From NCBI GenBank assembly GCA_036274595.1, contig DASUFL010000087.1:2348-66347 (forward strand): 64,000 bases of DNA. The letters are read 5' to 3'. Source of the DNA: Candidatus Eiseniibacteriota bacterium. GTDB lineage: Bacteria > Eisenbacteria > RBG-16-71-46 > SZUA-252. Position 1 is the stretch's first letter. Each line of letters starts with the position of its first letter. Below are positions 457 to 61,442 of the stretch, piece by piece. Under the pieces are notes generated by a model. The model had not been told where the DNA came from, searched no databases, and saw only the letters and a list, made by a program, of their open reading frames with translations. The translations under genes were made by a program, and so were the position numbers.

Positions 457-1191
457 ATGGCCGAAGCCGAATTCCACGTCTTCCGCGGAGATGCCAAGGG
501 CGGGACGCTCCAGCCGTACAAGATCCAGGTCGAGGAAGGGATGGTCGTCCTCGACGCCATCCATCACATCCAGGCGCACGGCGCTCCCGACCTGGCGGTC
601 CGCTGGAACTGCAAGGCGGCCAAGTGCGGCTCCTGCAGCGCCGAGGTGAACGGAAGGCCGAGCCTCATGTGCAAGACGCGGCTCGACTCGCTCCCGCTCG
701 AACAGCCGGTGGTCGTGAGGCCGATGCGCTCCTTCCCCGTGATCAAGGACCTCGTCACCGACGTGTCCTGGAACTACGAGGTGAACAAGAAGATCCCGCA
801 CTTCACGCCGAAGAAGGACGCCCCCTGGCGGTGGATGCAGGAGGACATCGATCGCGTGCAGGAGTTCCGGAAGTGCATCGAGTGCTTCCTCTGCCAGAAC
901 GTCTGTCACGTGATCCGGGAGCACGCGATGCAGCCTTCATTCGGCGGCCCGCGCTTCTTCGTGCGCGTAGCGGGGCTCGAGATGCACCCGATGGACGACG
1001 CGAACCGGACGGAGCTGCTCAAGGATGAGCTGGGGATCGGCTACTGCAACATCACGAAGTGCTGCACGGAGGTCTGCCCCGAGGACATCCACATCACCGA
1101 CAACGCGATCATCCCGCTCAAGGAGCGCGTGGTCGACGAGCACTACGATCCGCTCCGGAAGGTCTTCAAGCTCCTGACCGGGAAGAAGTAG
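457..1191 (+). CDS. sdhB: succinate dehydrogenase iron-sulfur subunit
   Basis: 244 aa with a 2Fe-2S ferredoxin-like Cys cluster (CKAAKCGSCSAEVNG) and 4Fe-4S/3Fe-4S motifs (CIECFLCQNVC, CNITKCCTEVCP); lies 9 nt after sdhA. Confidence 0.9.
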   Translation: MAEAEFHVFRGDAKGGTLQPYKIQVEEGMVVLDAIHHIQAHGAPDLAVRWNCKAAKCGSCSAEVNGRPSLMCKTRLDSLPLEQPVVVRPMRSFPVIKDLVTDVSWNYEVNKKIPHFTPKKDAPWRWMQEDIDRVQEFRKCIECFLCQNVCHVIREHAMQPSFGGPRFFVRVAGLEMHPMDDANRTELLKDELGIGYCNITKCCTEVCPEDIHITDNAIIPLKERVVDEHYDPLRKVFKLLTGKK

Positions 1192-1221
1192 TCGAGCGCC
1201 GCGCCACGCGCGGCGCTCCCC

Positions 1222-1746
1222 TCAGTCGGTCCCCGCGCTCCCGCTCCTCCGCTCGAGGAGGAGCACGTCCCGCCAGGCGCCGTGCATCTTTCCGATCCGC
1301 TCGCGGCGCCCCACGTCGCGGAATCCGCACGCGCGATGGAGCGCGAGGCTCGGCATGTTCTCGGGGAAGATGCCCGCCTGGAGCGTCCAGATGCCGGCGC
1401 GCTCGGAGGACTCGATGAGCGCCGTCAGGAGCGCCCGCCCGACGCCACGGCCCCGGGCCGCGCCGCTCACGTAGACCGAGAGATCGGCCACGCCGGCGTA
1501 GACGCAGCGCCCCGAGACCGGCGTGGCAGCGACCCACCCGAGCACCGAGCCGTCGGCATCGCGGGCGACGAACCGGAGCGCCGCGACGTGCGCGCCATCC
1601 CATGCCTCCCAGGACGGCGCCTCGGTCTCGAACGTGGCGTTGCCCGTCGCGATCCCTTCCAGATAGATCGCGCGGACGTGGGGCCAGTCGCCGGGGGTCA
1701 TGGGATCGATCCGAACGGCGGGAGGAGCCATGGCGGATGCTACCAC
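1222..1746 (-). CDS. GNAT family N-acetyltransferase (phosphinothricin-acetyltransferase-like)
   Basis: 174 aa. N-terminus VRIDPMTPGDWPHVRAIYLEGIATGNATFE resembles the PAT/GNAT N-terminus; acetyl-CoA binding region RGRGVGRALL is present. Start could be M1 or M6. Confidence 0.7.
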   Translation of the reverse strand: MVASAMAPPAVRIDPMTPGDWPHVRAIYLEGIATGNATFETEAPSWEAWDGAHVAALRFVARDADGSVLGWVAATPVSGRCVYAGVADLSVYVSGAARGRGVGRALLTALIESSERAGIWTLQAGIFPENMPSLALHRACGFRDVGRRERIGKMHGAWRDVLLLERRSGSAGTD

Positions 1747-1770
1747 ACGGCGTGAGCGGGCCCGGAGGGG

Positions 1771-3759
1771 TCAGGACGTGCGGGCGAGCGCCGCGCGCGC
1801 CGCGGCGAGGAGCGGCATGGCCGAGAGTCCCTCGCCCGTGGCGCCGCGCATCCACGCGTCCGGCGTGAGGCGCCCCTGCCGCGTCATGCGCTCGACGCCC
1901 TCGGCGAACGCGGCGCCTCGGAGCGCCGGCGCGACCTGGAAGGCGACGATCTTTCCGATGGCGTAGTCGGGCGTGTAGAGCGCGGAGTCGATGATGTGGG
2001 AGTAGATCGCGAGGAGATCGCTGTCGCGCCGGCCGAGCACCGGAGCGAACCAGCGGTTCCAGACGTGGCGCGCGATCGCGACGACGGCATCGCGCAGCTC
2101 CCCCGGGGTGGCGCCGGGGTGGGCGTAGAGCCAGTTCCAAACGTCCATGTCGATCAAGCTCACGCCGCAGATCTCGTACGTGCTCCAGAGGGACTGGAGC
2201 ACCTCGCGCGCCCTCGGCTCGTCTCCCTTCTCGCCGTAGCCCAGGATCTCGAGGTCCCGCTCCTGAAACGTGAAGGCGAACGCCTCGGTGAAGGCGGTGT
2301 TGGGGACGCCGCTCAAGGACCAGTAGTCGATCGCGTCCAGCGAGAAGACCTGCTCCACGCAGTGCCCCAGCTCGTGCATCGCGACATTGAAGGTCTGGTA
2401 GCTCATGCCGTTGTGCGCCCGCGTGCGCAGGTGCGACTGGTCCCCGCGCCGCGCGGCGCCCATGGCGTGCCCCGGTCCGCGCGCCGGATCGACCACGATG
2501 CGCTCCGCGAGCCAGGCGGCTCGATCCGCGGCGAACCCGAGCGCCTGAAGCACCCGCGGGAGGTCCCCCTGGAATGCCTCGAGGGTGGGATAGCGATCGC
2601 GCACCACCCGGTCCAGCTCTTCCTCGCTCGTGGCCTCGCGGGGCGAGAATCCCGAGTACCAGACGTCGAACGGCTCGAGGGGACGGCCGAGGCGCGACTC
2701 GATGCGGCGGGCCAGCTCGCGGACCTCGTCCGAGCCGAGGACCGCCTCGAGAAGCGCGCGCACCTCCCCCTCCGGGATCTGCCGGTCCAGGTCGAAGCGG
2801 CGCCGCACGAACGTGGGCGCCGTGGGCGTGTAGGGATCGGCGAGCTTGAGCGCATGGAAGACCTCGAGCAGGTACGCGTAGCGCGTGTCCGGCTCGCGCG
2901 ACGAACGGTCGCCATTCGGCACGACCTCGTTGGTCTCGGGACACCAGTCGACGTCGGGGTTGTCGCGTACCGACGCCGGAATCTCCTGGCGCACGATGCG
3001 CTCCATCACGGTCTGGATCATGCGCTGCTTCTCCTGCCCCTCCTTCCCCTCCCCGTAGCGTCCCTTCAGCTCGTCGCGCAGACCCCAGTGCGAGATGAGC
3101 CGGAGTCCCTCGGGAAACGGGCGGCGGCCGTCCTTCGTGCGGAGCCGATCCATGTGGATGTTGTACTCCGCGATGTAGAGGTCCGCCTCGCGCATGACCT
3201 GGCCCATCTTCTGGATGAGCGAAGACGGGATGCGCTCCGCGAAGCGATCCATGAAGCGCGAGCGGGCCCAGCGCCGGCGGTCCCAGCTGCGTCCCTGATC
3301 GAGGCGCTCCGCCAGCGTGTCCACCGGGAAGTGGAGCAGCGCGAAGAAGGCGGTCTTTGTGCGGAAGAGATCCTCCTCCACGTGCGATCCGAGATCCAGG
3401 TTCTGGAGGAAGAGATCGACGGGGCGGACCGGTCCGAGATCGAGATGGATCGGGCGCTGGAGCTCGCGGCGCACCTCGTGGAGGTGTCCGTCGACCTGCT
3501 CCATCGCCTGCTCGAGGCGGGCGAACGCAGCATCCCGCTCGGCGTCGGACTCGATCCAGCTCTCGGAGCAGAAGGCGACGAATTCGTCTTCGTCCCCGTC
3601 CTCCGGCCACCACCGCTCGGCCACCTGCGCGACGCCGCGCGCCAGCGCGTCCCCATGCGCCGCCCCGTACCGGGTGACGAGAGCCGCGCGGGCGCGCTCG
3701 GCCGCGCTCGCGGGAAGCGAGGTGGGCGGTGATTCCACGACGGGCTCGGCCCGGTTCAA
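1771..3759 (-). CDS. putative gluzincin-type zinc metallopeptidase (HEXXH...E; M3/M2-like oligopeptidase)
   Basis: 662 aa, cytoplasmic-looking. Has AMHELGHCVEQ with a Glu about 26 residues downstream (TEAFAF); length fits M3/M2-type oligopeptidases. Family not resolved. Confidence 0.5.
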   Translation of the reverse strand: MNRAEPVVESPPTSLPASAAERARAALVTRYGAAHGDALARGVAQVAERWWPEDGDEDEFVAFCSESWIESDAERDAAFARLEQAMEQVDGHLHEVRRELQRPIHLDLGPVRPVDLFLQNLDLGSHVEEDLFRTKTAFFALLHFPVDTLAERLDQGRSWDRRRWARSRFMDRFAERIPSSLIQKMGQVMREADLYIAEYNIHMDRLRTKDGRRPFPEGLRLISHWGLRDELKGRYGEGKEGQEKQRMIQTVMERIVRQEIPASVRDNPDVDWCPETNEVVPNGDRSSREPDTRYAYLLEVFHALKLADPYTPTAPTFVRRRFDLDRQIPEGEVRALLEAVLGSDEVRELARRIESRLGRPLEPFDVWYSGFSPREATSEEELDRVVRDRYPTLEAFQGDLPRVLQALGFAADRAAWLAERIVVDPARGPGHAMGAARRGDQSHLRTRAHNGMSYQTFNVAMHELGHCVEQVFSLDAIDYWSLSGVPNTAFTEAFAFTFQERDLEILGYGEKGDEPRAREVLQSLWSTYEICGVSLIDMDVWNWLYAHPGATPGELRDAVVAIARHVWNRWFAPVLGRRDSDLLAIYSHIIDSALYTPDYAIGKIVAFQVAPALRGAAFAEGVERMTRQGRLTPDAWMRGATGEGLSAMPLLAAARAALARTS

Positions 3760-10800: not shown

Positions 10801-10954
10801 CGTGCTTCGAATCTAGGAGCAGCGAGCCGCGACGTCAACGCGGCGTTGATTCCCGTTGAAGCCGCGCCTTCGTTCCGATACATTGCGCGCCGTCGAGCCC
10901 CACTCCATTCTCCGTCGAGCACGGCCACGCGTTTCGAAGCTCCTGGAGGGCAAC

Positions 10955-12412
10955 GTGAGCACGAGGCTGTACCGATTTGGACTTTCCGTGGCGGCACTCC
11001 TTCTCCTCGCCGGCACGGCGCTCGCCCAGCCTCCCGCCGGACCCGCCTTCTGGGTCGTCCCGGGCGGCGGCGCCTACTGGCCTCCCGCGGAATGGGGTGT
11101 GAAGGATCCGGTTCCCTCCTTCGGCGGGATTCTCGGGCTTCGTATCAGCGACCCGGTCGCGTTCGAGCTCCGCGGCCACTACTCGAAGGCCGACAGCTCC
11201 AAGCCCTACGCCGCGGGGCCCGATCTCAAGCTCCTCCACGGCGAAGGCAACATCACCTGGTTCCTCAGCCCCGGCGTTCCGGTGAGCCCCTATCTCACGC
11301 TCGGCGCCGGCGTCGTGAACGGGGATACGGGGGGCGACAGCCAGTCCAAGTTCGCCTGGAACGCCGGAGCCGGCGTCCGCATCCGCGTCTCCGATCAGAT
11401 GGCGGTGCGGCTCGACGGGCGGGACATCAGCTACAAGCTTGCCGTCTCGACGACTCCCGACGATGAGAGCTATCGCCACTCGGTCGAGGTCTTCGGCGGC
11501 CTGTCGTTTGGATTCGGCGGAGGGCCGTCCGACGAGGACCAGGACGGCGTGAGCAACAAGGCGGACAAGTGCCCCGGCACGCCGCCGGGCGCGCGCGTGG
11601 ACGCCGGCGGATGCCCGCTCGACGGCGACGGGGACGGCGTGTTCGACGGGATCGACAAGTGCGACGGCACGCCGGCGGGCGCGCTCGTCGACGCGACCGG
11701 ATGCCCGAAGGACTCGGATGGCGACGGCGTGTTCGACGGCATCGACAAGTGCGAGAACACGCCCGCGGGAGCGCGCGTGGACGCGTCCGGATGCGAGAGC
11801 GATTCCGACGGGGACAGCGTGCCCGACGGGATCGATCAGTGCGAGGCCACCCCGCGCGGCTGCACGGTCAACCCGAATGGCTGCCCGACCGACGCGGATC
11901 AGGACGGCGTGTGCGACGGGCTCGACCAGTGCCCCGATACGCAATCGAATGTCCGCGTGGACGCGAAGGGATGCCCGATGCAGATCAGCGTGCGCGAGAC
12001 GGAGATGATGGAAACCGGAATGATCCGGCTCCAGGACGTCAACTTCGACACCGGCAAGGCGACCATCAAGCCGGAGTCGTTCAAGATCCTCGACGACGTG
12101 GGACAGATCCTCGGGCACTGGCCGCAGCTCAGGATCGAGATCGGCGGGCACACGGACAGCCGCGGCTCGGACGCGCGGAACCAGCAGCTCAGCGAGGCGC
12201 GCGCCAAGGCCGTGCGCGACTATCTCACCAACAAGTTCCCCGAGCTGGACGCCGAGCAGTTCACGGCGGTCGGGTACGGGGAGAGGCAGCCCATCGCCAC
12301 CAACACGACGGCGCTGGGCATGGCGAAAAATCGCAGGGTCGAGTTCAAGGTGCTCAACAAGGAAGCACTCCGCAAGGAGAACACGAAGCAGCAGTTCGTT
12401 CCCAAGGAGTAG
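10955..12412 (+). CDS. OmpA-family outer-membrane protein with N-terminal beta-barrel, thrombospondin type-3 (TSP3) Ca-binding repeats and C-terminal OmpA domain
   Basis: C-terminal OmpA peptidoglycan-binding motifs (IEIGGHTDSRGSDARNQQLSEARAKAV, NRRVEFKV). Five tandem TSP3 repeats (GCPxDxDGDGVxDGIDKCxxTPxGAxVD). Signal peptide VSTRLYRFGLSVAALLLLAGTALAQ begins at an in-frame GTG at 10955, preceded by GGAGGG; the ORF tracker's ATG is at 10856. Confidence 0.8.
   Translation: MSTRLYRFGLSVAALLLLAGTALAQPPAGPAFWVVPGGGAYWPPAEWGVKDPVPSFGGILGLRISDPVAFELRGHYSKADSSKPYAAGPDLKLLHGEGNITWFLSPGVPVSPYLTLGAGVVNGDTGGDSQSKFAWNAGAGVRIRVSDQMAVRLDGRDISYKLAVSTTPDDESYRHSVEVFGGLSFGFGGGPSDEDQDGVSNKADKCPGTPPGARVDAGGCPLDGDGDGVFDGIDKCDGTPAGALVDATGCPKDSDGDGVFDGIDKCENTPAGARVDASGCESDSDGDSVPDGIDQCEATPRGCTVNPNGCPTDADQDGVCDGLDQCPDTQSNVRVDAKGCPMQISVRETEMMETGMIRLQDVNFDTGKATIKPESFKILDDVGQILGHWPQLRIEIGGHTDSRGSDARNQQLSEARAKAVRDYLTNKFPELDAEQFTAVGYGERQPIATNTTALGMAKNRRVEFKVLNKEALRKENTKQQFVPKE
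11521..11985 (+). repeat. intragenic tandem array of about 5 thrombospondin type-3-like repeats (about 28-31 aa / 84-93 nt each)
   Basis: Repeated peptide DGDGVFDGIDKC(D/E)(G/N)TPAGA(R/L)VDA(T/S)GCP(K/L)D.. seen in the translation; the nucleotide repeats are also visible. Confidence 0.8.
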
Positions 12413-12859: not shown

Positions 12860-15127
12860 TCAGTCCGGGAGGGGCCAGCGGAAGTCGCGGCGGTAGGTTT
12901 CGATGCGGCGTTCCATTGCGGTGATGAACGCGCTCCATCTCGGATCGGCATGGAGCGGCTTGTACATCTCCTCACGAAATCTCGTGAGCGTATCGTTCCC
13001 TAGCGCGACAGCGCGATCCAGGTACTGGAAGGCTTTGTCGGTCTCGCCCAGCTGCGCCATCAGTCCGGCGAAATCGCCCGCCGCATCCATGTCCACGCTC
13101 GCGTATGCCTCCGCGTCTGGAATGAGGGCTCGCACGCCATCTCGGTCGCCGAGGGCCAGGAGCGCGAAGGCTCGCTGGCCGAACGCGAGGCCCTGGTCAT
13201 ATCCGATGCGGTCCATGAGCGCGAGCGCATGGGCGGGACGCCCCTCGCCGATGAGGATCGACGCCTCGATTCCGAATAACCGATTGTGCCGCGGGAACCG
13301 GGTCAGTCCCTTCTCGAGCCATTCGCGGGCGCCGCGAACATCCCCCTGCACGTGATGGATGCGGACCATGTGCGCATAGGGCCAGACGACCGACGGATCG
13401 AGCTCGATCGCCATGGCGACCGACTGCCTCGCCTCCTCCAGCATGTCGCAGAGCCGGAACAGGTAGCCGAAGTAGTGGTAATTGTGCGCGAAATTCGGCG
13501 CGCTGCGCCTCGTGGCGAGAAAGCATCGGTACGCCTCGTGTTTGCGGCCGAAGACCAGATGAAGGCGACCCAGACCGAAGTTCACGGTCGGACCCTGGGG
13601 ATCGAGCGACTGGGCGCGGGCGAGGGCCTCCGTCGATTTGTCGTACCACCGTGGATCGGAATCGAAGCCTGCGTCCACCATGGATGCCCGAGCCATGCCG
13701 AGCCGTGCCCACGCTTCGGCCCATCGTGGCTCGAGCGACGTCACGCGTTCGAAATCACGGATGGCCCGCAGCATGCCTTCGTGCGTGCCCTCCTGCGAGG
13801 CGCGCGATCCCCGGAGGAACATCTCGTACGCCTCCGGCGACAGACCACCTGTCGCGCCGACGACAGGAGACACCGCGTCGCGCGAGACCAGCCGCACCGT
13901 AAGCGCCTCAGCGATGCCCTGGGCCACCTGATCCTGGACTTCGAAGATGTCCGCGAAGCGAAGGTCCACTTTCCCCGCCCACAGTCCGCGACCGCTCGGT
14001 GTCTCCACGAGGCGCGCCGTCGCGCGGAATCGATCGCCGATGCACTGGAACGAGGCATCGAGCACCGCGGACACGCCGAGCTCCTGCCCGACGCGGCGCG
14101 GCTCGACCGCGTGGTTCTCATAAACGGCGATGCTCCCGGTCGACCGCACGATGAGATCGGGCGAGTCCATGAGACGCGTGATCACGGCGTCAGCGAGCCC
14201 CACGCCGAGGTAGTTCAGGTCCTGGCTGCCGCCGATGTTCTTGAACGGGAGGACCGCGATGGCCCGCGGCCCGGACCCGCTCTCGGCTTTCGAGGGCCCC
14301 GACACGCAACCGCACTCCACCGTCTCGAGATCGATGTCGAAGTCGTGCGCGGATGAGTGGCGGCGCCCGGGATCCTTGGTCAGCGCCTTCGCGAACACGA
14401 AGTCGAACTCCGGCGTGAGCGCTGGATTCACGCGCGACGGCGGCTCGGGAGAGTCGTGGAGGATGCGGTGCATCGTCTCCACGGCCGAATCGGACGCGAA
14501 GGGATGGCGCCCGGTCAGGAGCTCGTACGCCACGGTTCCAAGCGAGAAGAGATCGCTCGCAGGTCCGGCCGGCTGTCCGAGAACCTGCTCCGGGGACATG
14601 TACGGAGCCGTTCCCAGGATCGTTCCGGGCTGGGTCGCGGTTCGTCCCTCTCCCGGCGAGAAGCTCCGCGCCAGTCCGAAGTCGAGGATCTTCAAGAGGC
14701 CGTCCTTGCGGACGAGCATGTTCTCCGGTTTGAGATCTCTATGGACGAGCCCAGCCGCATGCGCGACCTCGAGCGCTGCCGTGGCCTGCCGTAGAAGCCG
14801 CACGATCTCGACCGGCGAGCGCCGCTTCTCCTCGGCCCATCGCCGGAGGGTGACTCCGTCGATCAGCTCCATCGCGAGATAGAGGATGCCGTCCGATTCG
14901 CCGAGGTCGTGCACGACGACGATATTGGGATGGTTGAGCGCGCTCGCCGCCCGCGCTTCGTGGAGGAGGCGCTCGCGCCTGTCCCTGTCGTGCATGACCT
15001 CGGGCGGGAGCACTTTCACCGCCAGCATCCGTCCGAGGAGTGGGTCTTCGGCGAGGTAGACCCGGCCCATGCCTCCTGAGCCGATTGGCTCATGGATGCG
15101 GAAGCGGCCCAATGTAGTTCCAATCAT
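12860..15127 (-). CDS. Ser/Thr protein kinase with C-terminal TPR-like domain
   Basis: Hanks kinase motifs: GSGGMGRVY, VAVK-like (LAVKVL), HRDLKPEN, DFGLA, APYMSPE. Long helical/TPR-like C-terminus. Start at internal ATG (MIGTTLGRFRI...) at 15127; the ORF extends to 15229. Confidence 0.85.
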   Translation of the reverse strand: MIGTTLGRFRIHEPIGSGGMGRVYLAEDPLLGRMLAVKVLPPEVMHDRDRRERLLHEARAASALNHPNIVVVHDLGESDGILYLAMELIDGVTLRRWAEEKRRSPVEIVRLLRQATAALEVAHAAGLVHRDLKPENMLVRKDGLLKILDFGLARSFSPGEGRTATQPGTILGTAPYMSPEQVLGQPAGPASDLFSLGTVAYELLTGRHPFASDSAVETMHRILHDSPEPPSRVNPALTPEFDFVFAKALTKDPGRRHSSAHDFDIDLETVECGCVSGPSKAESGSGPRAIAVLPFKNIGGSQDLNYLGVGLADAVITRLMDSPDLIVRSTGSIAVYENHAVEPRRVGQELGVSAVLDASFQCIGDRFRATARLVETPSGRGLWAGKVDLRFADIFEVQDQVAQGIAEALTVRLVSRDAVSPVVGATGGLSPEAYEMFLRGSRASQEGTHEGMLRAIRDFERVTSLEPRWAEAWARLGMARASMVDAGFDSDPRWYDKSTEALARAQSLDPQGPTVNFGLGRLHLVFGRKHEAYRCFLATRRSAPNFAHNYHYFGYLFRLCDMLEEARQSVAMAIELDPSVVWPYAHMVRIHHVQGDVRGAREWLEKGLTRFPRHNRLFGIEASILIGEGRPAHALALMDRIGYDQGLAFGQRAFALLALGDRDGVRALIPDAEAYASVDMDAAGDFAGLMAQLGETDKAFQYLDRAVALGNDTLTRFREEMYKPLHADPRWSAFITAMERRIETYRRDFRWPLPD

Positions 15128-15504
15128 GATCCGGAGAGGATACCACCGGCAAATCGAGCGATGCGTAGCGGTTCTCCATTGACCGTGCACGCGCGTCGGT
15201 GGTACTCTCCCGCCCGTTCCTCGAATCATTCATCGCCTCGATCGCTCGTACGAGAGCCGCGCGATCGAAGAGAACTCCTCCTCAGCGAATTCCCCCTGAC
15301 CGCTAGGAGCAGAAACTCGTCCGTGCCCCGCGCCGCGAGTGTTCTCAGCCTCACGAAATTCGCGGCTACTTCGGCCGATTCCTACCGGTACGTCCCCACC
15401 GCATCGTCATGGAACGGCGACACACGTCCGCCGCGCGGACCTCCATAGGCCCTCCTCATCCCGCCTGAACCATTCCCCGTGAATTCAGGACCGAGGAGGC
15501 ATTC

Positions 15505-17661
15505 ATGTACAAGCGACTCATCGCAGTGCTCGCTCTCGCCACGCTCGTCTTCGCCGCACCCGCGCTCGCGCGCCCCATCGAGCGCTGGGCCAACGCCGAA
15601 AACGAACGCAAGAGCGACGCGGGCGAAACCGTGTATCGATGCGGCACCGATGATCATGGACGCAAGGTCGATCTCCAGACGCAGATCGACCGGCTGATCC
15701 AGGAGGGCCGCATCCAGGCCGGCGGTCAGATCGGCGTCTACTTCCACGTCGTCTACAATGGCAGCGAAGGGAACGTGAGCGACGCCGCTCTCGACGCCCA
15801 GATCCTCGTCATGAACCGCAACTACGCGGGCAGGGACTACAACGGCAACACCGTCGCCGGCGCCGCGAACACGGGCTACACGTTCGTCAAGGTCGGGACC
15901 TCCCGCACGAACAACCGGCAGTGGTTCAAGATGGTCCCTGGCTCGCGCAACGAGTCCCAGGCCAAGAGCGCGCTCGCGGTCTCGCCGGGCAACACGCTCA
16001 ACATCTACACCTGCAAGCCGGGACAGAACCTGCTCGGCTGGTCGGTCTTCCCGTGGGACCCGCAGGCGGGAACGAGCCAGGATGGCGTCGTGATCCACTA
16101 CGGATCGCTGCCGGGCGGCTACCTCTCACCCTACAACCTGGGCGGAACCGCCACGCACGAGGTCGGCCACTACCTGGGCCTGTATCACACGTTCCAGGGG
16201 GGATGTGACACGGGCTCCTGCTCGACCACGGGCGATCTCATCTGCGACACGCCGGCCGAGGGAACCGCGACGTCAGGCTGCCCGTCGGGCAAGGACACCT
16301 GTCCGGCCACCGGCCTCGATCCGATCCACAACTACATGGATTACTCCACGGACATCTGCTACACGAACTTCACCGCCGGCCAGGACACCCGCATGAACGC
16401 CGCGGTGAACACGTACCGCTCGTGGATCGGGAACGTCCGCGTGGCGAATGCGGACGTCGCGGACGACGCGGCCGACGACGCGGCCGACCGCTGGATGGCC
16501 AAGCTGCCCGATCCGGGCGAGCGCAAGAGCGATGCCGGCGAGACCGTGTACCGCTGCGGCACCGACGAGCATGGACCCAAGGTCCCGATGCTCCAGGAGC
16601 AGATCGACGCGCTCCGGGCTCAGGGCCGTCTCCAGGCAGGCGGTCAGATCGGCGTCTACTTCCACGTGATCTACGGCGGCAACGAAGGCAACGTGAGTGA
16701 CGCGGCTCTCGACGCGCAGATCCTCGTGCTGAACCGCAACTACGCGGGCAAGGACTACAACGGCAATACCGTCGCCGGCGCCGCGAACACGGGCTACACG
16801 TTCGTCAAGGTCGGAACCTCCCGCACGAACAGCAAGCAGTGGTTCAAGATGGTTCCCGGATCACGCGCCGAGAGCCAGGCCAAGAATGGGCTCGCGGTCT
16901 CGCCGGGCAACACGCTCAACATCTACACCTGCAAGCCGGGACAGAACCTGCTCGGCTGGTCGGTCTTCCCGAACGATCCCCAGGCGGGGACGAACCTGGA
17001 CGGCGTCGTGATCCACTACGGGTCGCTGCCGGGCGGCTACCTCTCGCCCTACAACCTGGGCGGAACCGCCACGCACGAGGTCGGCCACTACCTGGGTCTG
17101 TATCACACGTTCCAGGGCGGCTGCGACACGGGCTCCTGCTCCACGACCGGCGACAACGTCTGCGACACGCCGGCGCAGGGGACCGCGACGTCGGGCTGCC
17201 CGTCGGGCAAGGACACCTGCCCCGCGACCGGCCTCGACCCGATTCACAACTACATGGATTACTCCACGGACATCTGCTACACGAACTTCACGCCGGGCCA
17301 GGACACCCGCATGAACGGGATGGTGAACACGTACCGCTCCTGGATCGGCAACGTGCGCATCGCGAACGGAGCTTCGACGAGCCAGAACGGGGCCGCGGCG
17401 GTCACCGCGTTCCGCGCGGTTCCGAACCCGTTCAATCCGCGCACGAAGATCGAGTTCGGTCTGCGCACGGGCACGCAGGTGTCGGTGCGCGTGTATGACA
17501 TCCAGGGGCGCCTGGTCGCGACGCTCGTGAACCGCGAGCTCCCGGCCGGAAACCACTCGGTGGACTTCAACGGCGACAAGCTCGCCAGCGGCGTCTACAT
17601 GATGGTGCTCCACGTGAAGGGCGAGGCTCCGGTCGTGCGGAGGATGTCGCTCCTCAAGTAG
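15505..17661 (+). CDS. secreted protein with two tandem M43 (ulilysin/pappalysin-type) zinc-metalloprotease domains and a T9SS-type C-terminal sorting domain
   Basis: Signal peptide. Two copies of HEVGHYLGLYHTFQGGC (HEXXHXXGXXH metzincin motif of M43B) with Cys-rich surroundings. C-terminus VPNPFNPRTKIEFGL...VRVYDIQGRLVATLV...SGVYMMVLHV...LLK matches the T9SS type-A sorting / FlgD-Ig-like pattern. Confidence 0.8.
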   Translation: MYKRLIAVLALATLVFAAPALARPIERWANAENERKSDAGETVYRCGTDDHGRKVDLQTQIDRLIQEGRIQAGGQIGVYFHVVYNGSEGNVSDAALDAQILVMNRNYAGRDYNGNTVAGAANTGYTFVKVGTSRTNNRQWFKMVPGSRNESQAKSALAVSPGNTLNIYTCKPGQNLLGWSVFPWDPQAGTSQDGVVIHYGSLPGGYLSPYNLGGTATHEVGHYLGLYHTFQGGCDTGSCSTTGDLICDTPAEGTATSGCPSGKDTCPATGLDPIHNYMDYSTDICYTNFTAGQDTRMNAAVNTYRSWIGNVRVANADVADDAADDAADRWMAKLPDPGERKSDAGETVYRCGTDEHGPKVPMLQEQIDALRAQGRLQAGGQIGVYFHVIYGGNEGNVSDAALDAQILVLNRNYAGKDYNGNTVAGAANTGYTFVKVGTSRTNSKQWFKMVPGSRAESQAKNGLAVSPGNTLNIYTCKPGQNLLGWSVFPNDPQAGTNLDGVVIHYGSLPGGYLSPYNLGGTATHEVGHYLGLYHTFQGGCDTGSCSTTGDNVCDTPAQGTATSGCPSGKDTCPATGLDPIHNYMDYSTDICYTNFTPGQDTRMNGMVNTYRSWIGNVRIANGASTSQNGAAAVTAFRAVPNPFNPRTKIEFGLRTGTQVSVRVYDIQGRLVATLVNRELPAGNHSVDFNGDKLASGVYMMVLHVKGEAPVVRRMSLLK
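15604..17370 (+). repeat. intragenic tandem duplication: two about 915-nt units (15604-16518 and 16519-~17370) with high nucleotide identity
   Basis: Long runs are identical at the DNA level (e.g. GGGCAACACGCTCAACATCTACACCTGCAAGCCGGGACAGAACCTGCTCGGCTGGTCGGTCTTCCCG in both units). The protein repeat period is 305 aa. Confidence 0.9.
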
Positions 17662-17732
17662 CGCTCGCTTAGCGCTCGCTCGACCGCATCGCAGGGAAAC
17701 GGGGCCGGTCCGCAAGGATCGGCCCCGCTGCT

Positions 17733-18581
17733 ATGATGGAGGGACATCCCTTCCCGTCACCCTGTCCCGGAGGTCCCGTGAAATCGCCCGTGACGATACG
17801 CCCCGGACGCTCGTTCCAGCTCGAGGATCTCCCGACCACGGACGTCGCAGGCTTCAAGGACAAGGCGGACGGGCGCGGCCAGCTCGAGAAGCACTTGGAG
17901 CGGCTCCGCGAGCTCCAGCATCTCCTCTACGCGGACGGGCGGTATGCGGTTCTGATCGTGCTCCAGGCCATGGACACAGGCGGCAAGGACGGCACGATCC
18001 GCCACGTCATGAGCGGATTCAACCCGGCGGGATGCATGGTCACGTCGTTCAAGGTTCCCTCCGACGACGAGCGAAAGCACGACTTTCTCTGGCGCATCCA
18101 CCACGCCGTGCCGCCCAAGGGAGTGATCGGGGTCTTCAACCGGTCGCACTACGAGGACGTGCTGGTGGTCCGCGTGCACAAGATGGTGCCGAAGGAGGTC
18201 TGGAAGGCCCGCTACAGGCAGATCAACGAGTTCGAGCGCATGCTCACCGAGACGGGAACCACGGTCATCAAGTTCTTCCTCCACATCAGCAAGAAGGAGC
18301 AGGCGAAACGGCTCAGGTCGCGGATCGAGGACAAGAGGAAGAACTGGAAGTTCTCGTCGGCGGACCTGGCCGAGCGGAAGCTCTGGAGCGAGTATCAGGA
18401 CGCGTACGAGGACGCGCTCCGCGAGTGCTCCACGGAGTGGGCCCCATGGACGGTGGTCCCGGCCGACGTGAAGTGGGCGCGGGACGAGATGGTGGCCCGC
18501 GTCATGGTGGAGAAGCTCGAGGCCCTCGACCTGCGCTATCCCAAGCCGCAGAAGGATCTCGATCTGGCCGTCGTGAAGTAG
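17733..18581 (+). CDS. ppk2: polyphosphate kinase 2 family protein (polyphosphate:nucleotide phosphotransferase)
   Basis: 282 aa. PPK2 Walker-A-like motif AMDTGGKDG and lid region; family-typical length. Confidence 0.8.
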   Translation: MMEGHPFPSPCPGGPVKSPVTIRPGRSFQLEDLPTTDVAGFKDKADGRGQLEKHLERLRELQHLLYADGRYAVLIVLQAMDTGGKDGTIRHVMSGFNPAGCMVTSFKVPSDDERKHDFLWRIHHAVPPKGVIGVFNRSHYEDVLVVRVHKMVPKEVWKARYRQINEFERMLTETGTTVIKFFLHISKKEQAKRLRSRIEDKRKNWKFSSADLAERKLWSEYQDAYEDALRECSTEWAPWTVVPADVKWARDEMVARVMVEKLEALDLRYPKPQKDLDLAVVK

Positions 18582-30815: not shown

Positions 30816-32930
30816 TCAGGCCTGGCCTAGATAGCGATCCAGCCATTCCCGAACCTCACGGTTCCAGACGAGCGAGTTCTTGGGTTTCAAGACCCAGTGG
30901 TTCTCGTCCGGGAAGAAGACCAGGCGGGAATCGACCCGCTTGGCTTGGTAGATGTTGTACGCGGCGAGCGCCTGCGTGTGCGGCACGCGGTAGTCGCGCT
31001 CTCCGTGAAGAATCAGCATCGGCGTCGTGAATCCGCGCGCGAACCGCGCGGGATTCCACCGGTCGATCGCCTCGAGCCGGTCCCACGGCTCCCCGCCGTA
31101 GGCCTGATGCCTCCCCTGCGTGACGTCGCTCCCGTACTCGGCCAGCAGATCGAACACGCCCGCGTGGTTCACGAGACAGCGGAAGCGATCCGTGTGCCCC
31201 GCGATCCAGCAGACGAGGTATCCGCCGTAGGAGCCGCCCGCCGCGGCCATGCGCGCGGGATCCACGAAGCCGGTCTCGATCAGGACGTCGGTCGCGCGCA
31301 TGATGTCGGTGAACGGCTTGTCTCCATGCCCGCCCTGGATGCAGGCGGCGAACTCCTGCCCCCACGACGTCGATCCGTGGAAGTTCACGGACGCGACCAC
31401 GTAGCCGCGGGCCGCGAAGAGATGCGGATTCCACCGGAAGTGGAAGTTGTCCCCCGAGATCGCGTGCGGCCCGCCGTGGATGACGTGGACCAGCGGCCAC
31501 TTCTTCGACGGATCGAAGTTGGGCGGGAGCGTCACGTACATCTGGACCGGATCGTTGTCCGCTCCCTGGAAGATCATCTCGCGCACCTCGCCCATCGCGA
31601 TCCCGGCGAGGATGGGAGCGTTGAAGCTCGTGTGCATCTGGAGGTCGCTGCCGTCCGGCTTGGCGCTCGCCGCCTCGGCGGGCGCGCTCAGCGACTGGAT
31701 CGTGAAGTAGAGGCGGCCGTCCCGGCCCACCCTGAGCCCGCCGACGGTCCCTGGGATTCCGAGGGGGCGCGGCGTCGGCTCCTCGGCCGGAAAATGGAAC
31801 AGCGCATTCCTGCCTCGATCCTCCGCATCGATCGCGAGCGAGCCGTCAGGGAGGAACTCCCACGCTCCCGCCGAGCGATCCCACGCCTCGGTGAGCGTCC
31901 GATGCGTGTCCGTCGCGCGGTCGTAGCGCACGAGCCGCACCTTGTCGGCATAGAAGAAGGGATCGCGCTGTGCGCCGTAGACGATCGACCGCCCGTCGGG
32001 CGAATAGCGCGGACGGAGCGCGTCGGACACGTTCTCGGGCGAGCCCTCCGGCGTCAGGCAGCGCACCGGCCCTTGGCCGGACGTCGGAACCGTGTAGACG
32101 GCCCAGCGCAGAAGGTAATGAGGCGGCTGGCTGGAGTTGGCGGAGAACGCGATCTCCGATCCGTCCGGGGCGATGTCGTAATGCCCCGTCGGATCCATGA
32201 AGTCGAGCCAGCCCGCTCCGTCGGGGGTGAGATCGGTGAGAGCGCGCGTCGCGAGATCGAGCACGAACAGATGCGGGCGCTCGCCTCCCGTGAGCCACTT
32301 GTCCCAGAAGCGGTAGATGCGATCCGAGGTCACGTGCGCCTTCACCGGATCCTTGGCGCGCTTCTCGAGGAGCTCCTTCGTCCCGACGGGCGTGGGCGCG
32401 TCCGCGAGCAGGAACGCGACGAACGCGATCCGCTTCCCATCCGGGAGCCAGCGTGGATCCATCGCGCCGAGCGGCATCTCGGTGAGGCGCTCGGGCTCGC
32501 CCCCCTGGAGCGCGAGGATGTGGATCTGCGGCTTCTCGTCTCCCTGGCACCGCGCGTAGAGGAGCCGCGTGCCGTCGGGGGAGAGCGCGGGCTCGGTGGA
32601 CGAGGCATCCGCGCTGGTCAACGGGCGCGCCTCACCCTGGCGGGGAATCCGCCAGAGACGTGCGCGGCCGCGATTCTCTTCGATGTCGTAGGTCGTGACG
32701 GGAACGATCAGGAAGGAACCGTCCGGCGCGGGCGCGGGAGCGCCGACGCGGCTCATGCGCCAGAGATCCTCCGCCGCCATGGGACGCTGGCCACGGTTCC
32801 GGGCCTGGTGAAGGACGGCGAACGGCTGTGCTTCCGATCGGGGCTCGGCGACGTGCACGGCACACCTCCGGTGGGGAGAGACCCGCAGCCACCCCGGCGT
32901 GGGCGCGGGACTGACGGAATGGGTCATCAT
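30816..32930 (-). CDS. S9 family serine peptidase (prolyl oligopeptidase/acylaminoacyl-peptidase type) with N-terminal beta-propeller
   Basis: TolB-like WD/propeller repeats. C-terminal alpha/beta hydrolase with GGSYGG nucleophile motif, and Asp/His later (HGERDYRVP...ENHWV). Start uncertain (M1 at 32930 or M51 at 32780). Confidence 0.8.
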   Translation of the reverse strand: MMTHSVSPAPTPGWLRVSPHRRCAVHVAEPRSEAQPFAVLHQARNRGQRPMAAEDLWRMSRVGAPAPAPDGSFLIVPVTTYDIEENRGRARLWRIPRQGEARPLTSADASSTEPALSPDGTRLLYARCQGDEKPQIHILALQGGEPERLTEMPLGAMDPRWLPDGKRIAFVAFLLADAPTPVGTKELLEKRAKDPVKAHVTSDRIYRFWDKWLTGGERPHLFVLDLATRALTDLTPDGAGWLDFMDPTGHYDIAPDGSEIAFSANSSQPPHYLLRWAVYTVPTSGQGPVRCLTPEGSPENVSDALRPRYSPDGRSIVYGAQRDPFFYADKVRLVRYDRATDTHRTLTEAWDRSAGAWEFLPDGSLAIDAEDRGRNALFHFPAEEPTPRPLGIPGTVGGLRVGRDGRLYFTIQSLSAPAEAASAKPDGSDLQMHTSFNAPILAGIAMGEVREMIFQGADNDPVQMYVTLPPNFDPSKKWPLVHVIHGGPHAISGDNFHFRWNPHLFAARGYVVASVNFHGSTSWGQEFAACIQGGHGDKPFTDIMRATDVLIETGFVDPARMAAAGGSYGGYLVCWIAGHTDRFRCLVNHAGVFDLLAEYGSDVTQGRHQAYGGEPWDRLEAIDRWNPARFARGFTTPMLILHGERDYRVPHTQALAAYNIYQAKRVDSRLVFFPDENHWVLKPKNSLVWNREVREWLDRYLGQA

Positions 32931-32981
32931 AGACGACCCACGCCGCCGACGGAACCGCGGAACGCGGCTCCGGGAGTCGGG

Positions 32982-34130
32982 CTAGTAGCGAAAGACCGCC
33001 GCGATCGGGCTGGCGGTGGGCATCGAGGCGCGTGGCACTACGAAGGCCTCGCCACCCCGCTTGAGCGCTTCCTCGCAAAGGTCGTCGAGGAGATCGTCGT
33101 CCACGGCGTCGAGCTGACGCTCGCGCCGCTCCACCGAGCCCGTGGCCCGGTCGAGGATCCCCCAGACCGTCTCGCCCTCGGCTGCGAGCACGCACGACAC
33201 CCGTCCCTGGATCACGGCTTCCGCCACGGACTCGATGCGATCGCTCGCGAGGCCGCTCGGGGCCGACGTCTTGTAGCGCTCGACCCAAGGCTCGAAGCCA
33301 CGCGGCGCGGCCGCGCTCACGATGGGCCACGCGTCCGCATGGATCTTGTCGCCGTTCGCGTGCTCGTAGCTCCCCTCGAGCATGGTGGCCATCAGATGCG
33401 GGTACGTGTTCGCCTCGTGGTAGATCGGCTGGTAGTACTTCACCGCGGCGAGGAGGAGCGGGGCGCGCTCGCCGTGCAGGAATTCGCGGAGCGCCTTGTC
33501 GATGACATGGAAGTAGGAGAGGAGATCTTCCTTCGTCTCCTCCTTCCCCGGCCCGTAGCCGTGATACGCGGCGCCCCCCGCGTGCAGCGTCATCAAGCGG
33601 CGCTCGTTCACCACCTCGCCGAGCGCGTCGGTGACGCTCTGCGGGAGCCCGGGCACGTCCACGGCCGACGCGCCGAGCGGCCCGCCCTCGAAGAGCCGCG
33701 CCGATTTCTGGCTCACGGCGAGGACGAAGTAGCGGGTCGCCTCATGCTTGAGACGGAGGAGCGGCTTCACGTGGAACGAGTCGGCCACCACCGCGATCTC
33801 GGGCAGGGACGCGGACACGCGGTACGCGGCCGCGAGCGATGGCGAGAGGAAAGCCGCGAATCCGTCGAGCGAGCGCTGCCAGTGCGATTCCTGCTCGAGC
33901 GCGCGGAGCGGAGCGATCATCGCTTCGGCATCGGGCGCGTCCTGCTTGAGGAGCGCCGCCGCCTTGTCGACGAGATTCCGGTAGCGGAGGGGATCCTGCC
34001 GCTTCTCCGGAAAACGGCGCGAGGTCGGCAGGTAGATCGAAACGCATGGGGCGCCTGCCGCCTGGAGAAGCGGCTTCAGGTCCTCGCTCCGGAAGGTCTG
34101 GACGTCGATCTTTTGTGCGCGGGAGGCCAT
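32982..34130 (-). CDS. eRF1/Pelota-like (bacterial baeRF / host-attachment-type) protein
   Basis: 382 aa. C-terminal segment ...VWGILDRATGSVE...DLLDDLCEEALKRGGEAFVV...SPIAAVFRY resembles domain 3 of eRF1/Pelota, which ends GGI(A/G)AILRY/F. No GGQ motif. Confidence 0.5.
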   Translation of the reverse strand: MASRAQKIDVQTFRSEDLKPLLQAAGAPCVSIYLPTSRRFPEKRQDPLRYRNLVDKAAALLKQDAPDAEAMIAPLRALEQESHWQRSLDGFAAFLSPSLAAAYRVSASLPEIAVVADSFHVKPLLRLKHEATRYFVLAVSQKSARLFEGGPLGASAVDVPGLPQSVTDALGEVVNERRLMTLHAGGAAYHGYGPGKEETKEDLLSYFHVIDKALREFLHGERAPLLLAAVKYYQPIYHEANTYPHLMATMLEGSYEHANGDKIHADAWPIVSAAAPRGFEPWVERYKTSAPSGLASDRIESVAEAVIQGRVSCVLAAEGETVWGILDRATGSVERRERQLDAVDDDLLDDLCEEALKRGGEAFVVPRASMPTASPIAAVFRY

Positions 34131-34133
34131 GGC

Positions 34134-34367
34134 TCAGACCGCCTTGGGTGCCGGGGGCGGAAGCGCGATCGCGACGACGGCGGAGTCGAAGCCACAGGTC
34201 TTGTGCGCCGAGTCGCAGAACGGCTTCTTGGAGGACTGTCCGCAGCGGCAGAGGGTGATCGCGGTGCGACCCGCCAGGTCGAACTCGCGGCCGTCCTGAT
34301 CCACGATCGTGAACTCCCCCTCGATGCGGATGGGGCCGTTGTTCCGGATGATGATCTTGGCGGGCAT
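34134..34367 (-). CDS. CDGSH-type iron-sulfur domain protein (variant CDSAH)
   Basis: 77 aa from ATG at 34367. Motif [17 protein letters not shown] = C-X-C-X2-S-X3-P-X-C-D-S-A-H. Lies 3 nt upstream of the eRF1-like gene. Confidence 0.75.
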
Positions 34368-34497
34368 TCGCTCCTCCCAGGTCCATGGATCGGGCCCACG
34401 CCGGTGCGCGGCGGTCCCCCTCGTCGTCGCCTCCAAGTATATACTCCCCGGGAACCGTCTCGCCTCATCCCCCAAACCCAGAGAGGTCAGCCGCCCC

Positions 34498-36177
34498 ATG
34501 GCGCCCCAGTACATCTTCACGATGGTCAATCTCGGCAAGGTCCATCCGCCCAACAAGGAGGTCCTGAAGGGGATCTACCTGTCCTTCTATCCGGGCGCCA
34601 AGATCGGCGTCCTCGGCCAGAACGGCGCGGGCAAGAGCACGCTCCTCCGCATCATGGCCGGAGTCGAGGAGCCGACGTCGGGCGAGGCCAGGCCGGCCAG
34701 GGGGATCAAGGTCGGCTTCCTGCCCCAGGAGCCCGTGCTCGATCCCACGAAGGACGTGCTCGGCAACATCCAGGAGGGCGTGGCCGAGACGAAGGCGCTG
34801 CTGGACCGCTTCAACGAGCTGAACATGAAGCTGGGCGAGTCGCTCTCCGACGCCGAGATGGAGAAGGTGATGGAAGAGCACGGACGCGTGATGGCCGAGA
34901 TCGAGGCGGTCAATGCCTGGGAGCTCGACCGCACGCTCGAGATCGCGATGGATGCGCTCCGCGTGCCCCCTGGCGATGCCAAGGTCGAGACCTTGTCGGG
35001 TGGCGAGCGGCGCCGCGTCGCTCTCTGCCGGCTCCTGTTGACGCGTCCTGATTTGCTGTTGCTGGACGAGCCCACGAACCACCTCGACGCCGAGTCGGTG
35101 GCGTGGCTCGAGCGCTTCCTCCACGACTACCCCGGCACCGTCGTCGCCGTGACCCACGACCGCTACTTCCTCGACAACGTCGCCGGCTGGATCCTCGAGC
35201 TGGATCGCGGACAGGGCATTCCCTGGGAGGGAAACTACTCGTCCTGGCTCGATCAGAAGAAGAACCGGCTCGCGCTCGAGGAGAAGGCCGAGTCCTCGCG
35301 CCAGCGCACGCTCGCCCGCGAGCTCGAATGGATCCGCATGTCGCCCCGCGCGCGGCAGGCCAAGAGCAAGGCGCGCGTCACCGCGTATGAGGAATTGCTG
35401 CGAGAGGACACGGAGAAGCGGAGCGAGATCACCGAGATCACGATCCCCCCCGGCCCGCGCCTCGGGAACCTCGTGGTCGAAGCGACGAACCTCTCGAAGG
35501 GCTACGGCGACCGAGCGTTGATCGAGGACCTCTCGTTCCGTCTCCCTCCCGGCGGCATCGTCGGCATCATCGGCCCGAACGGCGCCGGCAAGACGACGCT
35601 CTTCCGCATGATCGCCGGCCAGGAGAAGCCGGATGGCGGCACGCTCCGCCTCGGCGACACGGTGACGCTCTCCTACGTGGACCAGTCGCGCGAGGCCCTC
35701 GACGGCAAGAAGACGGTGTGGGAGGAGATCTCCGGAGGCGAGGACCTGATCGAGCTCGGCACCCGGAGCGTCCCCTCGCGCTCCTACGTGGCCGCCTTCA
35801 ACTTCAAGGGCGCCGATCAGCAAAAGCCCGTGAAGAACCTCTCCGGCGGCGAGCGGAACCGCGTGCACCTGGCCAAGGTCTTGAAGTCAGGCGGGAACTT
35901 GCTGCTCCTCGACGAGCCGACGAACGACCTCGACGTCGATACGCTGCGCGCGCTCGAAGAGGCGATCCTGGGCTTCGCGGGCTGCGTTTGCGTGATCACC
36001 CACGATCGCTGGTTCCTCGACCGGATCGCCACGCACATGCTGGCGTTCGAAGAGGACGGGAGCGTGGTGTGGTTCGAGGGCAACTTCCAGGACTACGAAG
36101 CCAACCGCCACATGCGCCTGGGAGCCGCGGCGGACCAGCCGCACCGGCCGAGGTACAAGAAGCTGGTGCGGGAGTAG
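34498..36177 (+). CDS. ettA: energy-dependent translational throttle protein EttA (ABC-F ATPase)
   Basis: 559 aa. Two ABC cassettes ([31 protein letters not shown]; [20 protein letters not shown]) and an arm/linker region; near-identical in length to E. coli EttA. Confidence 0.9.
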
Positions 36178-61441: not shown

Positions 61442-61442
61442 G

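Follow-up and report, generated by a model that had tools for sequence, protein, structure and literature searches.

A window of 64,000 nucleotides (nt) of contig DASUFL010000087.1, from a soil Candidatus Eiseniibacteriota bacterium, contains an open reading frame (ORF) for a protein of 718 amino acids (aa; 15505-17661, forward strand (+), stop codon included; coordinates follow the numbering of the window). It encodes a two-headed M43 pre-pro-protease, in which two units, each with its own pro-segment and catalytic domain, share one type IX secretion system (T9SS) C-terminal sorting domain (CTD). The best explanation overall is probably a long-standing tandem zymogen gene of Candidatus Eisenbacteria, whose units exchange sequence and which can lose one of them in frame. 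The first-pass annotation of the window had instead proposed a recent 915-bp intragenic duplication, which fails because the number of synonymous substitutions per synonymous site (dS) between the units is 0.345 and because two units are found at the same locus in L092, L007, L001, L087, L088 and L089. Here and below, Q_N and Q_C denote the first and second unit of the window protein, L-numbers the compared loci and P-numbers the compared proteins.

Architecture and family of the protease

The ORF, delimited from the ORF list and Pfam matches, is intact and its frame remains open through both units. A Shine-Dalgarno-like GAGGAGG (15493-15499, +), read from the sequence, lies 5 nt 5' of the ATG, and the start codon and N-terminus are kept in orthologs. 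A putative Sec-type signal peptide, MYKRLIAVLALATLVFAAPALA (aa 1-22; 15505-15570, +), consisting of MYKR, a hydrophobic core and an ALA cut before RP, was called by eye only; this pattern too is kept in orthologs. It is followed by the leader and pro-segment 1 (aa 23-68; 15571-15708, +), with the cysteine-switch motif R45-C46-G47 at nt 15637-15645, and by catalytic domain 1 (aa 69-315; 15709-16449, +), which was placed by Pfam and PDB alignments and begins at the predicted auto-activation residue Arg69. Pro-segment 2 (aa 339-374; 16519-16626, +), delimited by conservation, carries R350-C351-G352 at nt 16552-16560 and leads into catalytic domain 2 (aa 375-621; 16627-17367, +), which begins at the predicted auto-activation residue Arg375 and was placed by alignment and an AlphaFold2 (AF2) model of the unit. 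The order of parts is thus unit 1 (aa 34-315), linker (316-338), unit 2 (339-621), spacer (622-639) and a beta CTD of T9SS type A (aa 640-718; 17422-17658, +). Scans of 15150-17800 for a sigma-70 promoter and an intrinsic terminator returned nothing, and such scans are uninformative for this phylum.

Profile matches agree with this anatomy. PF05572 (Peptidase_M43) matches the protein in two stretches (E = 1.7e-38; 132.4 bits, cutoff 23), PF18962 (Por_Secre_tail) matches aa 640-705 with 31.3 bits (cutoff 27), and the NCBIfam model TIGR04183 matches the tail with 26.5 bits (cutoff 23). The CTD is predicted to be all-beta, with a predicted local distance difference test (pLDDT) score of 70-88 in a full-length AF2 model, and homologs from Eisenbacteria carry the NCBI name "T9SS type A sorting domain-containing protein". 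The architecture given in the first-pass annotation (signal peptide, two complete heads and T9SS CTD) was borne out by the Pfam and NCBIfam matches and the motifs, the signal peptide being putative from inspection. We hold the anatomy and the family assignment of this two-headed M43 zymogen gene with high confidence.

The acidic linker between the units, ADVADDAADDAADRWMAKLPDPG (aa 316-338; 16450-16518, +), was recognized by Tandem Repeats Finder (TRF) and by pLDDT, which is below 50 in both the full-length and the unit-2 AF2 model. Within it TRF found a perfect 12-nt tandem repeat, GACGACGCGGCC x 2.2 (16462-16488), encoding DDAADDAAD. The linkers of L001 and L007 have one repeat copy fewer (DDAAD), and linker length therefore varies by repeat slippage. 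The linker, predicted to be disordered, probably acts as a flexible tether until cleavage.

Both units carry the full set of family signatures. The sequence HEVGHYLGLYHTFQGGC occurs twice, at aa 218 and aa 524, and the metzincin consensus HEXXHXXGXXH is present as HEVGHYLGLYH at aa 218-228 (nt 16156-16188, +) and aa 524-534 (nt 17074-17106, +). The motif NYMDY, at aa 276-280 (nt 16330-16344, +) and aa 582-586 (nt 17248-17262, +), aligns to the NYMDY of mirolysin and ulilysin; in M-x-Y the methionine is that of the Met-turn and the tyrosine is the "tyrosine switch" (PMC6949598, PMC11674741). Among the 26 two-unit proteins aligned, H218, E219, H222, H228, M278, Y280 and D283 and their equivalents in the other unit are invariant, as are R45/C46 and R350/C351. 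Asp283 and Asp589 align with the S1' residue Asp289 of mirolysin and are likewise invariant, by which a specificity for Xaa-cut-Arg/Lys bonds (P1') is implied for both heads. As judged from these motifs, each unit appears to be a complete pro-enzyme, more than a bare catalytic domain.

The closest PDB sequence matches are mirolysin (E = 8e-34) and ulilysin (E = 1e-23), followed by the catalytic domains of PAPP-A (about 1e-14). Mirolysin and ulilysin, the nearest characterized proteins, are classed as M43B (PMC8259862). An AF2 model of unit 2, built from an alignment of 90 sequences, reached a predicted TM-score (pTM) of 0.79, with pLDDT above 90 in the N-terminal subdomain. Its top Foldseek match was mirolysin (6.5e-16; TM 0.62/0.70), followed by promirolysin (297 columns), ulilysin and then PAPP-A, with ADAMs trailing by orders of magnitude (at least 3e-6). 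The earlier assignment to an M43 family of ulilysin/mirolysin type is thus upheld by PF05572 and by the best PDB and Foldseek matches, the ADAMs being far weaker.

Duplicated enzyme domains often degenerate, and the two heads of heterotypic orthologs differ systematically (HEVGHYLGL/QDTRMN vs. HEVGHWVGL/QDARAD). One head might accordingly be non-catalytic or regulatory, as a substrate-binding pseudo-protease or an intramolecular inhibitor, leaving the protein functionally single-headed. We consider this very improbable, because neither unit of the 26 proteins varies at its zinc ligands, catalytic Glu, Met-turn Met, Tyr switch, S1' Asp or switch Cys, both units are under purifying selection, and one-unit alleles lacking either the N unit (delta-N) or the C unit (delta-C) exist with leader and CTD intact. 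The existence of both kinds of allele implies that either head can stand alone. From the invariant catalytic residues and a ratio of nonsynonymous to synonymous substitution rates (dN/dS) of 0.21 between the units, both heads look functional.

Divergence of the two units

The 305-aa period noted in the first-pass annotation holds: the repeat period is 915 nt at the unit start and 918 nt past a one-codon indel (305/306 aa). The repeat is far beyond chance, with 282 aligned residues and a BLOSUM62 local score of 1389. The units had also been described as near-identical, with long stretches of 100% nucleotide identity. The former description fails and the latter was overstated, as Q_N and Q_C have 100 mismatches over 846 aligned nt (88.2% nt identity, 89.7% aa identity) and their longest identical runs measure 82, 50, 47 and 47 nt. 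Third codon positions hold 59 of the 100 mismatches, and NG86 estimates are dN 0.072, dS 0.345 and dN/dS 0.21. Both copies are clearly diverged and under purifying selection.

Given this 12% divergence and the purifying selection, the second unit is no duplicate made by an assembler. According to another view, assembly created the second unit or the doubling as a whole, and the true gene has one unit. This view draws on the observations that contigs often break in the gene (L007, L098, L097, L103, P0002), where assemblers evidently struggle, and that the exact window protein is not on record elsewhere. We find it scarcely credible: assembler duplicates are identical and the window copies differ at 12% of sites; third positions show an excess of changes, dN/dS is 0.21 and the frame is intact through both units; the two-unit form comes from independent JGI, ENA and NCBI assemblies (some 27 clusters and eight further loci); and P0001 was assembled identically in independent ENA and JGI samples. 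Duplication by the assembler, which the first-pass annotation had named in advance as fatal to its claim, is excluded by the divergence and the repeated independent assembly.

Age of the two-unit architecture

About 27 clusters of two-unit proteins (703-742 aa) are on record in public data, the most distant at 57% identity with the window protein, together with many one-unit relatives of 395-450 aa. Two-unit genes are found at the same syntenic locus in L001/L002 (P0001, 82% identity), L007 (93%), L091-L094 and L096, and also in distant relatives, L087 (P0006, 65% identity), L088 (P0018, 59%) and L089 (P0011). PPK2, the downstream neighbour of the M43 gene in the window, is only 71% identical to that of L087 and 68% to that of L088. 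Because two-unit genes are syntenic in lineages with PPK2 identities of 68-71%, the architecture predates deep splits in the phylum.

Identity between the two units of a protein spans 56% to 92%. In a neighbour-joining (NJ) tree of units there is no division into an N clade and a C clade: one-unit proteins fall among the units of both kinds, and pairs of N and C sisters appear repeatedly. Bootstrap values for N-C sisterhood are 187/200 (P0003), 169/200 (P0017), 97/200 (the window protein) and 0/200 (P0001). Two signature types were distinguished, U (HEVGHYLGL...QDTRMN) and L (HEVGHW[VI]GL...QD.RAD). Two-unit proteins are U-L, U-U or L-L, and L-U was never seen, a set of combinations that fits an old heterotypic pair homogenized in either direction, which is suggestive.

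Gene conversion in the window lineage

By PPK2, the closest relative of the window is L092 (94.9% aa identity, dS 0.20). Its C unit groups with that of L001 (87.2% nt identity) and apart from Q_C (79.5%), and the N and C units are 80.1% identical in L092 and 79.6% in L001. In the window and L007 the values are different: Q_N and L007_N are 90.7% identical, Q_C and L007_C 91.0%, and L007_N and L007_C 91.2%. Since L092 and L001 keep a divergent pair of units, A-B, this pair is ancestral to the species group. The comparisons suggest that the lineage of the window and L007 later replaced its C unit by A-like sequence (A-B to A-A'), a change that would account for the present 88% identity and for its patchy distribution.

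The distribution of sites within the units points the same way. Informative sites among Q_N, Q_C, L007_N and L007_C support orthology in 23 cases, similarity within a genome in 19 and the cross pattern in three. The orthology and concerted sites are clustered (10 runs over 42 sites, permutation P = 1e-4) and hence mark gene-conversion tracts. One orthology block, at unit nt ~50-210, spans the pro-segment with its codon indel, and another lies at ~599-657; concerted blocks cover ~187-575 and ~664-755. Block by block, dS between Q_N and Q_C is 0.58, 0.18, 0.73 and 0.41, against 0.24-0.65 for orthologous comparisons, and L007 has a block with a dS of 0. The longest identical N-C tract exceeds chance both in the window (82 nt, P = 0.001) and in L007 (105 nt, P = 0.002). 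Significant tracts are also present in L088, L089 and L090; that of L087 is not significant. Ongoing gene conversion, which the first-pass annotation had offered as an alternative to duplication, is the better reading in view of the block-clustered site patterns and the significant identical tracts.

A recent intragenic tandem duplication of about 915 bp, with copies that have barely diverged, would also explain why Q_N and Q_C are sisters in the NJ tree (at the low bootstrap value given above), why dS falls to 0.18 at unit nt 186-576, and why identical runs reach 82 nt. It is nonetheless very improbable. The 100 differences over 846 nt correspond to a dS (0.345) about equal to that among the window, L007 and L092 orthologs (0.29-0.43). 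N-specific and C-specific blocks, including the codon indel, are common to the window and L007. Two units, the C unit being divergent, are already present in the closest outgroups, L092 and L001, and far more distant lineages carry two-unit genes at the same locus.

Variation in unit number

Genes with one unit occupy the same locus in L003-L005, L006, L008, L099, L101, L102, L104 and L107, and one-unit alleles next to PPK2 extend over the whole series L101-L107; in L003-L005 the encoded protein, P0031, is identical in three samples. The flanking genes put L003, L006 and L008 just outside the group of the window and L001, and farther outgroups have two units. With the one-unit loci nested between two-unit ones, parsimony favours secondary loss of a unit.

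The clearest case is provided by L105 and P0030, which, from their sequences, appear to derive from a heterotypic two-unit gene like that of L095/P0020. L105 is a delta-N derivative: its only unit matches the C unit of the P0020-like gene of L095/L100 at 85.6% identity and the N unit at 64.9%. The leader (75%) and the CTD (90%) are shared with that gene, and the switch point lies at a conserved "...NGE.VYRC". P0030 is the delta-C counterpart, with 92.6% identity to the N unit against 63.3% to the C unit, and it too has the leader and CTD of the P0020-like gene. The one-unit genes of L003, L006 and L008 are mosaics: of 23 sites diagnostic for N or C, 12-14 carry the N state and 9-11 the C state. 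These genes are C-like at the pro-segment indel; the crossover behind them could not be placed from these 23 sites. No three-unit ORF was seen among the compared loci.

Contigs often end inside the M43 gene (L007, L098, L097, L103, P0002 and P0033). That of L007 stops at position 256 of 283 of unit 2, and L098 is a 35-kb contig ending in unit 1. The first-pass annotation had described the repeat as a hotspot of recombination and copy-number variation and warned of faulty short-read assembly. One- and two-unit alleles at the orthologous locus agree with the former, and the frequent breaks of contigs within the gene support the latter. As a separate observation, P0111 (579 aa, on a 122-kb ENA contig) looks frameshifted, with an N-terminus resembling an out-of-frame linker and pro-segment, one good M43 unit and an unrelated PF00486 C-terminus; the probable explanation is an error of sequencing or assembly, or else decay of a two-unit gene into a pseudogene.

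An old two-unit architecture that has undergone conversion and unit loss is, in our judgement, likely, with good confidence.

Pro-segments, export and a proposed mechanism

In mirolysin, latency is maintained by Cys23 of a Cys-Gly motif, which caps the zinc, and by Arg21, which occupies the S1' pocket (PMC6949598). The enzyme activates itself at the Ser54-Arg55 bond, and auto-activation at Xaa-Arg bonds is known for both mirolysin and ulilysin (PMC6949598, PMC8259862). The activation site of ulilysin, S60/R61, aligns exactly with G374/R375 of the window protein, whose equivalent in the first repeat is G68/R69. At least 90% of sequences keep R69 and R375, and the switch Cys of the pro-segment is invariant in 90 sequences.

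By analogy, the following course is proposed. The Sec system would export the two-headed protein to the periplasm, where each head would fold into a latent zymogen, its zinc ion capped by Cys46 (head 1) or Cys351 (head 2). The single CTD would then take both heads through the T9SS and be cut off. Autolysis N-terminal to Arg69 and Arg375 would strip the pro-segments, and the cut at Arg375 would also part head 1 from head 2. The outcome would be two LysargiNase-like enzymes (Xaa-cut-Arg/Lys) per secretion event, for extracellular proteolysis. Autolysis before Arg69 and Arg375 would fit the Xaa-Arg/Lys specificity to which the conserved S1' aspartates Asp283 and Asp589 point. To auto-processing into two enzymes we would give somewhat less than even weight.

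A wider and more doubtful proposal is that the protein is a "polyprotease" precursor, whose single signal peptide and single T9SS tail export two zymogens in a 1:1 ratio and which is split by auto-activation at Arg375. Head 1 would be shed, and head 2 would be left with a CTD-processed C-terminus and might be anchored at the surface. U-L orthologs would yield two enzymes with different subsites, and recombination between the repeats would allow a lineage to change from one to another of the forms U-L, U-U, L-L, U-only and L-only, making the gene a tunable secreted-protease cassette. The benefit of two heads could be one of dosage per secretion event in the U-U and L-L forms and of complementary specificities in the U-L forms.

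Several points weigh against the interpretation of the gene as an old tandem zymogen gene with exchange and loss of units. The pro-segment is unlike that of mirolysin, with R-C-G in place of R-x-C-G and with 23-24 residues from the Cys to the activation Arg in place of 32, and secretion, latency, auto-cleavage and specificity are all attributed by homology. In the unit-2 AF2 model, the pro-segment and the Cys-rich subdomain have a pLDDT of 46-78, the latter alone 46-56. A full-length AF2 model, from an alignment of 26 sequences, was too poor (pLDDT 57, pTM 0.37) for claims on the packing of the heads or the docking of the pro-segments and was discarded. A division of U and L into two ancient clades appeared in the NJ tree with a bootstrap of 109/200 (55%) and was kept as suggestive only. 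The polarity, with two units ancestral, is drawn from parsimony with outgroups and from dS; duplications or allele fusions that occurred there several times independently are a less likely alternative. The donor of A' may have been another allele rather than the adjacent N unit, as the pro-segment of Q_C is nearest to one-unit alleles (85% to L006, against 77% to Q_N and 68-77% to B-type units). Finally, some of the one-unit "alleles" from short reads could in principle be graph collapses via shared k-mers.

A further protein of the window, of 827 aa (36490-38973, +), bears on the secretion route: besides 11 FG-GAP repeats it has a FlgD_ig-like domain at the C-terminus (aa 763-809). The tail of the M43 gene also matches the FlgD_ig-like domain family, weakly. 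The FG-GAP protein probably uses the same C-terminal-sorting route as a further secreted cargo.

Rarity of fused units and comparison with known proteases

In an exhaustive search of 1.84 billion cluster representatives, a fused double M43 was found in three of the 150 nearest 50%-identity clusters, represented by P0009, P0102 and P0129, P0009 standing for the whole two-unit family of Eisenbacteria at this level of clustering. The remark in the first-pass annotation that double-headed M43 proteases are unusual is thereby confirmed. Entries of the representative search with "2 stretches" were tried as carriers of a second catalytic unit, and a hidden Markov model (HMM) and motif count left only P0129 with two.

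P0102 (703 aa; L090 1268-3379) resembles the window protein in having two M43 units in one ORF and a T9SS-like tail. Its units are 88.7% identical in nt, with an identical tract of 190 nt. It differs in its genomic context, and its units pair together outside the Eisenbacteria units in the NJ tree. P0129 (581 aa) has two M43 units without the tail. P0102 and P0129 represent independent origins of a fused double M43. No paper on catalytic domains in tandem in M43 or lower-pappalysin proteins, or on T9SS in Eisenbacteria, came up in literature searches, and a paper on the evolution of PAPP-A does not treat bacterial architectures.

Outside Eisenbacteria, a scan of species-representative genomes found M43 tandems only as separate genes and none fused. 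Such separate tandem genes are common in Actinomadura, Nocardioides, Myxococcota and Fimbriimonadaceae (L028-L030, L034, L038, L042, L050, L054 and L081), mostly as two genes in a row and as three in L030. Tandem duplication is therefore frequent in the family and fusion is rare. Some Eisenbacteria have a third M43 paralog as a gene of its own, placed between the main M43 gene and PPK2, at L095 (5126-6439), L100 (5358-6671), L103 (1285-2712) and L105 (3325-4626). This paralog is equipped with a separate signal peptide and CTD, shows GRCGT as its switch motif together with HE[IV]GHWIGLLH, and belongs to a distinct P0085/P0118-like clade; the window lacks it.

These observations bear on how the two-unit gene arose. 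Instead of by intragenic duplication, it may have originated by fusion of two tandem one-unit genes, with in-frame loss of the first CTD, the intergenic spacer and the second signal peptide, or by recombination between two different one-unit alleles. The frequency of separate tandem genes in Actinomadura, Myxococcota, Nocardioides and others, the extra paralog at the same locus in the four loci just named, and the coexistence of heterotypic U-L genes with one-unit genes of each type that have the same leader and CTD all speak for it. Against it, only a short acidic linker lies between the units, with no remnant of a signal peptide or CTD, and the separate third paralog is from another clade (GRCGT, HEIGHWIGLLH). 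We regard a fusion origin as rather unlikely, yet as deserving some weight. It concerns the origin only and is compatible with the long-standing gene with exchange and unit loss as the later history; the data fit both this origin and intragenic duplication.

Among characterized proteases, the best match in both sequence and fold is mirolysin, a KLIKK protease of Tannerella forsythia (PDB 6R7U/6R7V/6R7W, 7OD0), at an identity of only about 34%. It has the same order of modules, namely a signal peptide, a short pro-segment with Cys-Gly, an M43 domain and a T9SS CTD (PMC8259862), and it shares HEXXHXXGXXH, the NYMDY Met-turn, the Tyr switch and the S1' Asp. Where mirolysin has a single catalytic domain, the window protein carries two units of pro-segment and domain in series on one CTD. 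The pro-segment of the window protein is about 8 residues shorter, and its switch motif is R-C-G, like the PRCG switch of matrix metalloproteinases (MMP), as opposed to R-x-C-G (R21-T22-C23-G24) in mirolysin. The zinc-motif Gly, kept in the window protein, is Asp in mirolysin. Ulilysin/LysargiNase from Methanosarcina acetivorans (PDB 2CKI, 8CD8) shares the lower-pappalysin catalytic domain at about 29% identity, and differs in being archaeal and single-domain, without a T9SS CTD. Cytophagalysin CPL1 of Cytophaga sp. L43-1, also a lower pappalysin from a bacterium, combines a pro-segment with what are putatively a Cys switch and a T9SS CTD; it was enlarged by eight Ig-like domains and not by a second catalytic unit (PMC11674741).

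Several metallopeptidase domains in one chain, arising by internal duplication, are found in angiotensin-converting enzyme (ACE; two M2 domains) and carboxypeptidase D (three M14 domains). These belong to other clans and are eukaryotic membrane proteins, with neither serial zymogens nor T9SS, and the comparison implies for them no concerted evolution or loss of units like that of the M43 gene. To our knowledge, the characterized lower pappalysins all have a single catalytic domain. The two-headed gene is a new architectural variant within a known family of M43 proteases.

Genomic context

The order of genes at the locus is kinase, double M43, PPK2, TPR and Na/H exchanger. In the window, Pfam matches give the neighbours, in order, as DUF5916, PaaA/PaaC, HerA, OmpA-TSP3, Ser/Thr kinase-TPR (-), M43, PPK2, TPR (-) and Na/H exchanger. 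Two of them served as synteny anchors: the divergent upstream neighbour, a Ser/Thr protein kinase with TPR repeats identified by Pfam (12860-15229, -), which is found at the same position in L001, L003, L006, L007 and L088, and PPK2 (17733-18581, +; PF03976, E = 6e-71), which was also the yardstick of species divergence. Homologs of the M43 protein come nearly all from metagenome-assembled genomes of Candidatus Eisenbacteria and from soil or forest metagenomes. Horizontal acquisition of the gene was considered and rejected, as its GC content of 0.66 matches the window (0.66-0.72) and synteny is conserved. The exact window protein is not on record in public assemblies, which thus hold no direct replicate of the window allele.

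Elsewhere in the window, a 90-nt tandem repeat (x 4.1, 75% matches) at 11564-11932, inside an OmpA-family gene (10856-12412), encodes thrombospondin type-3 (calcium-binding) repeats, with a Pfam match to TSP_3. Long ORFs (508-1384 aa) without a Pfam match at E <= 1e-5 are located at 30897-35051 (+), 1166-3613 (-), 59549-61825 (-), 61336-62952 (-) and 53501-55027 (+). Some of these may be spurious antisense ORFs at 68% GC; the one of 1384 aa overlaps an ORF of 704 aa on the other strand.

Implications

For work on short-read metagenome assemblies, the gene is a recurrent breakpoint, and calls of one or two units at this locus need care. Lower pappalysins such as ulilysin/LysargiNase and mirolysin serve as reagents in proteomics and are under study as virulence factors. 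Two zymogens on one T9SS tail raise the questions of how they are folded, kept latent and translocated together, and whether two enzymes are released. The locus is also a compact natural case, in an uncultured phylum, of concerted evolution, directional homogenization of U-L to U-U or L-L, and in-frame loss of either unit, all at one syntenic site.

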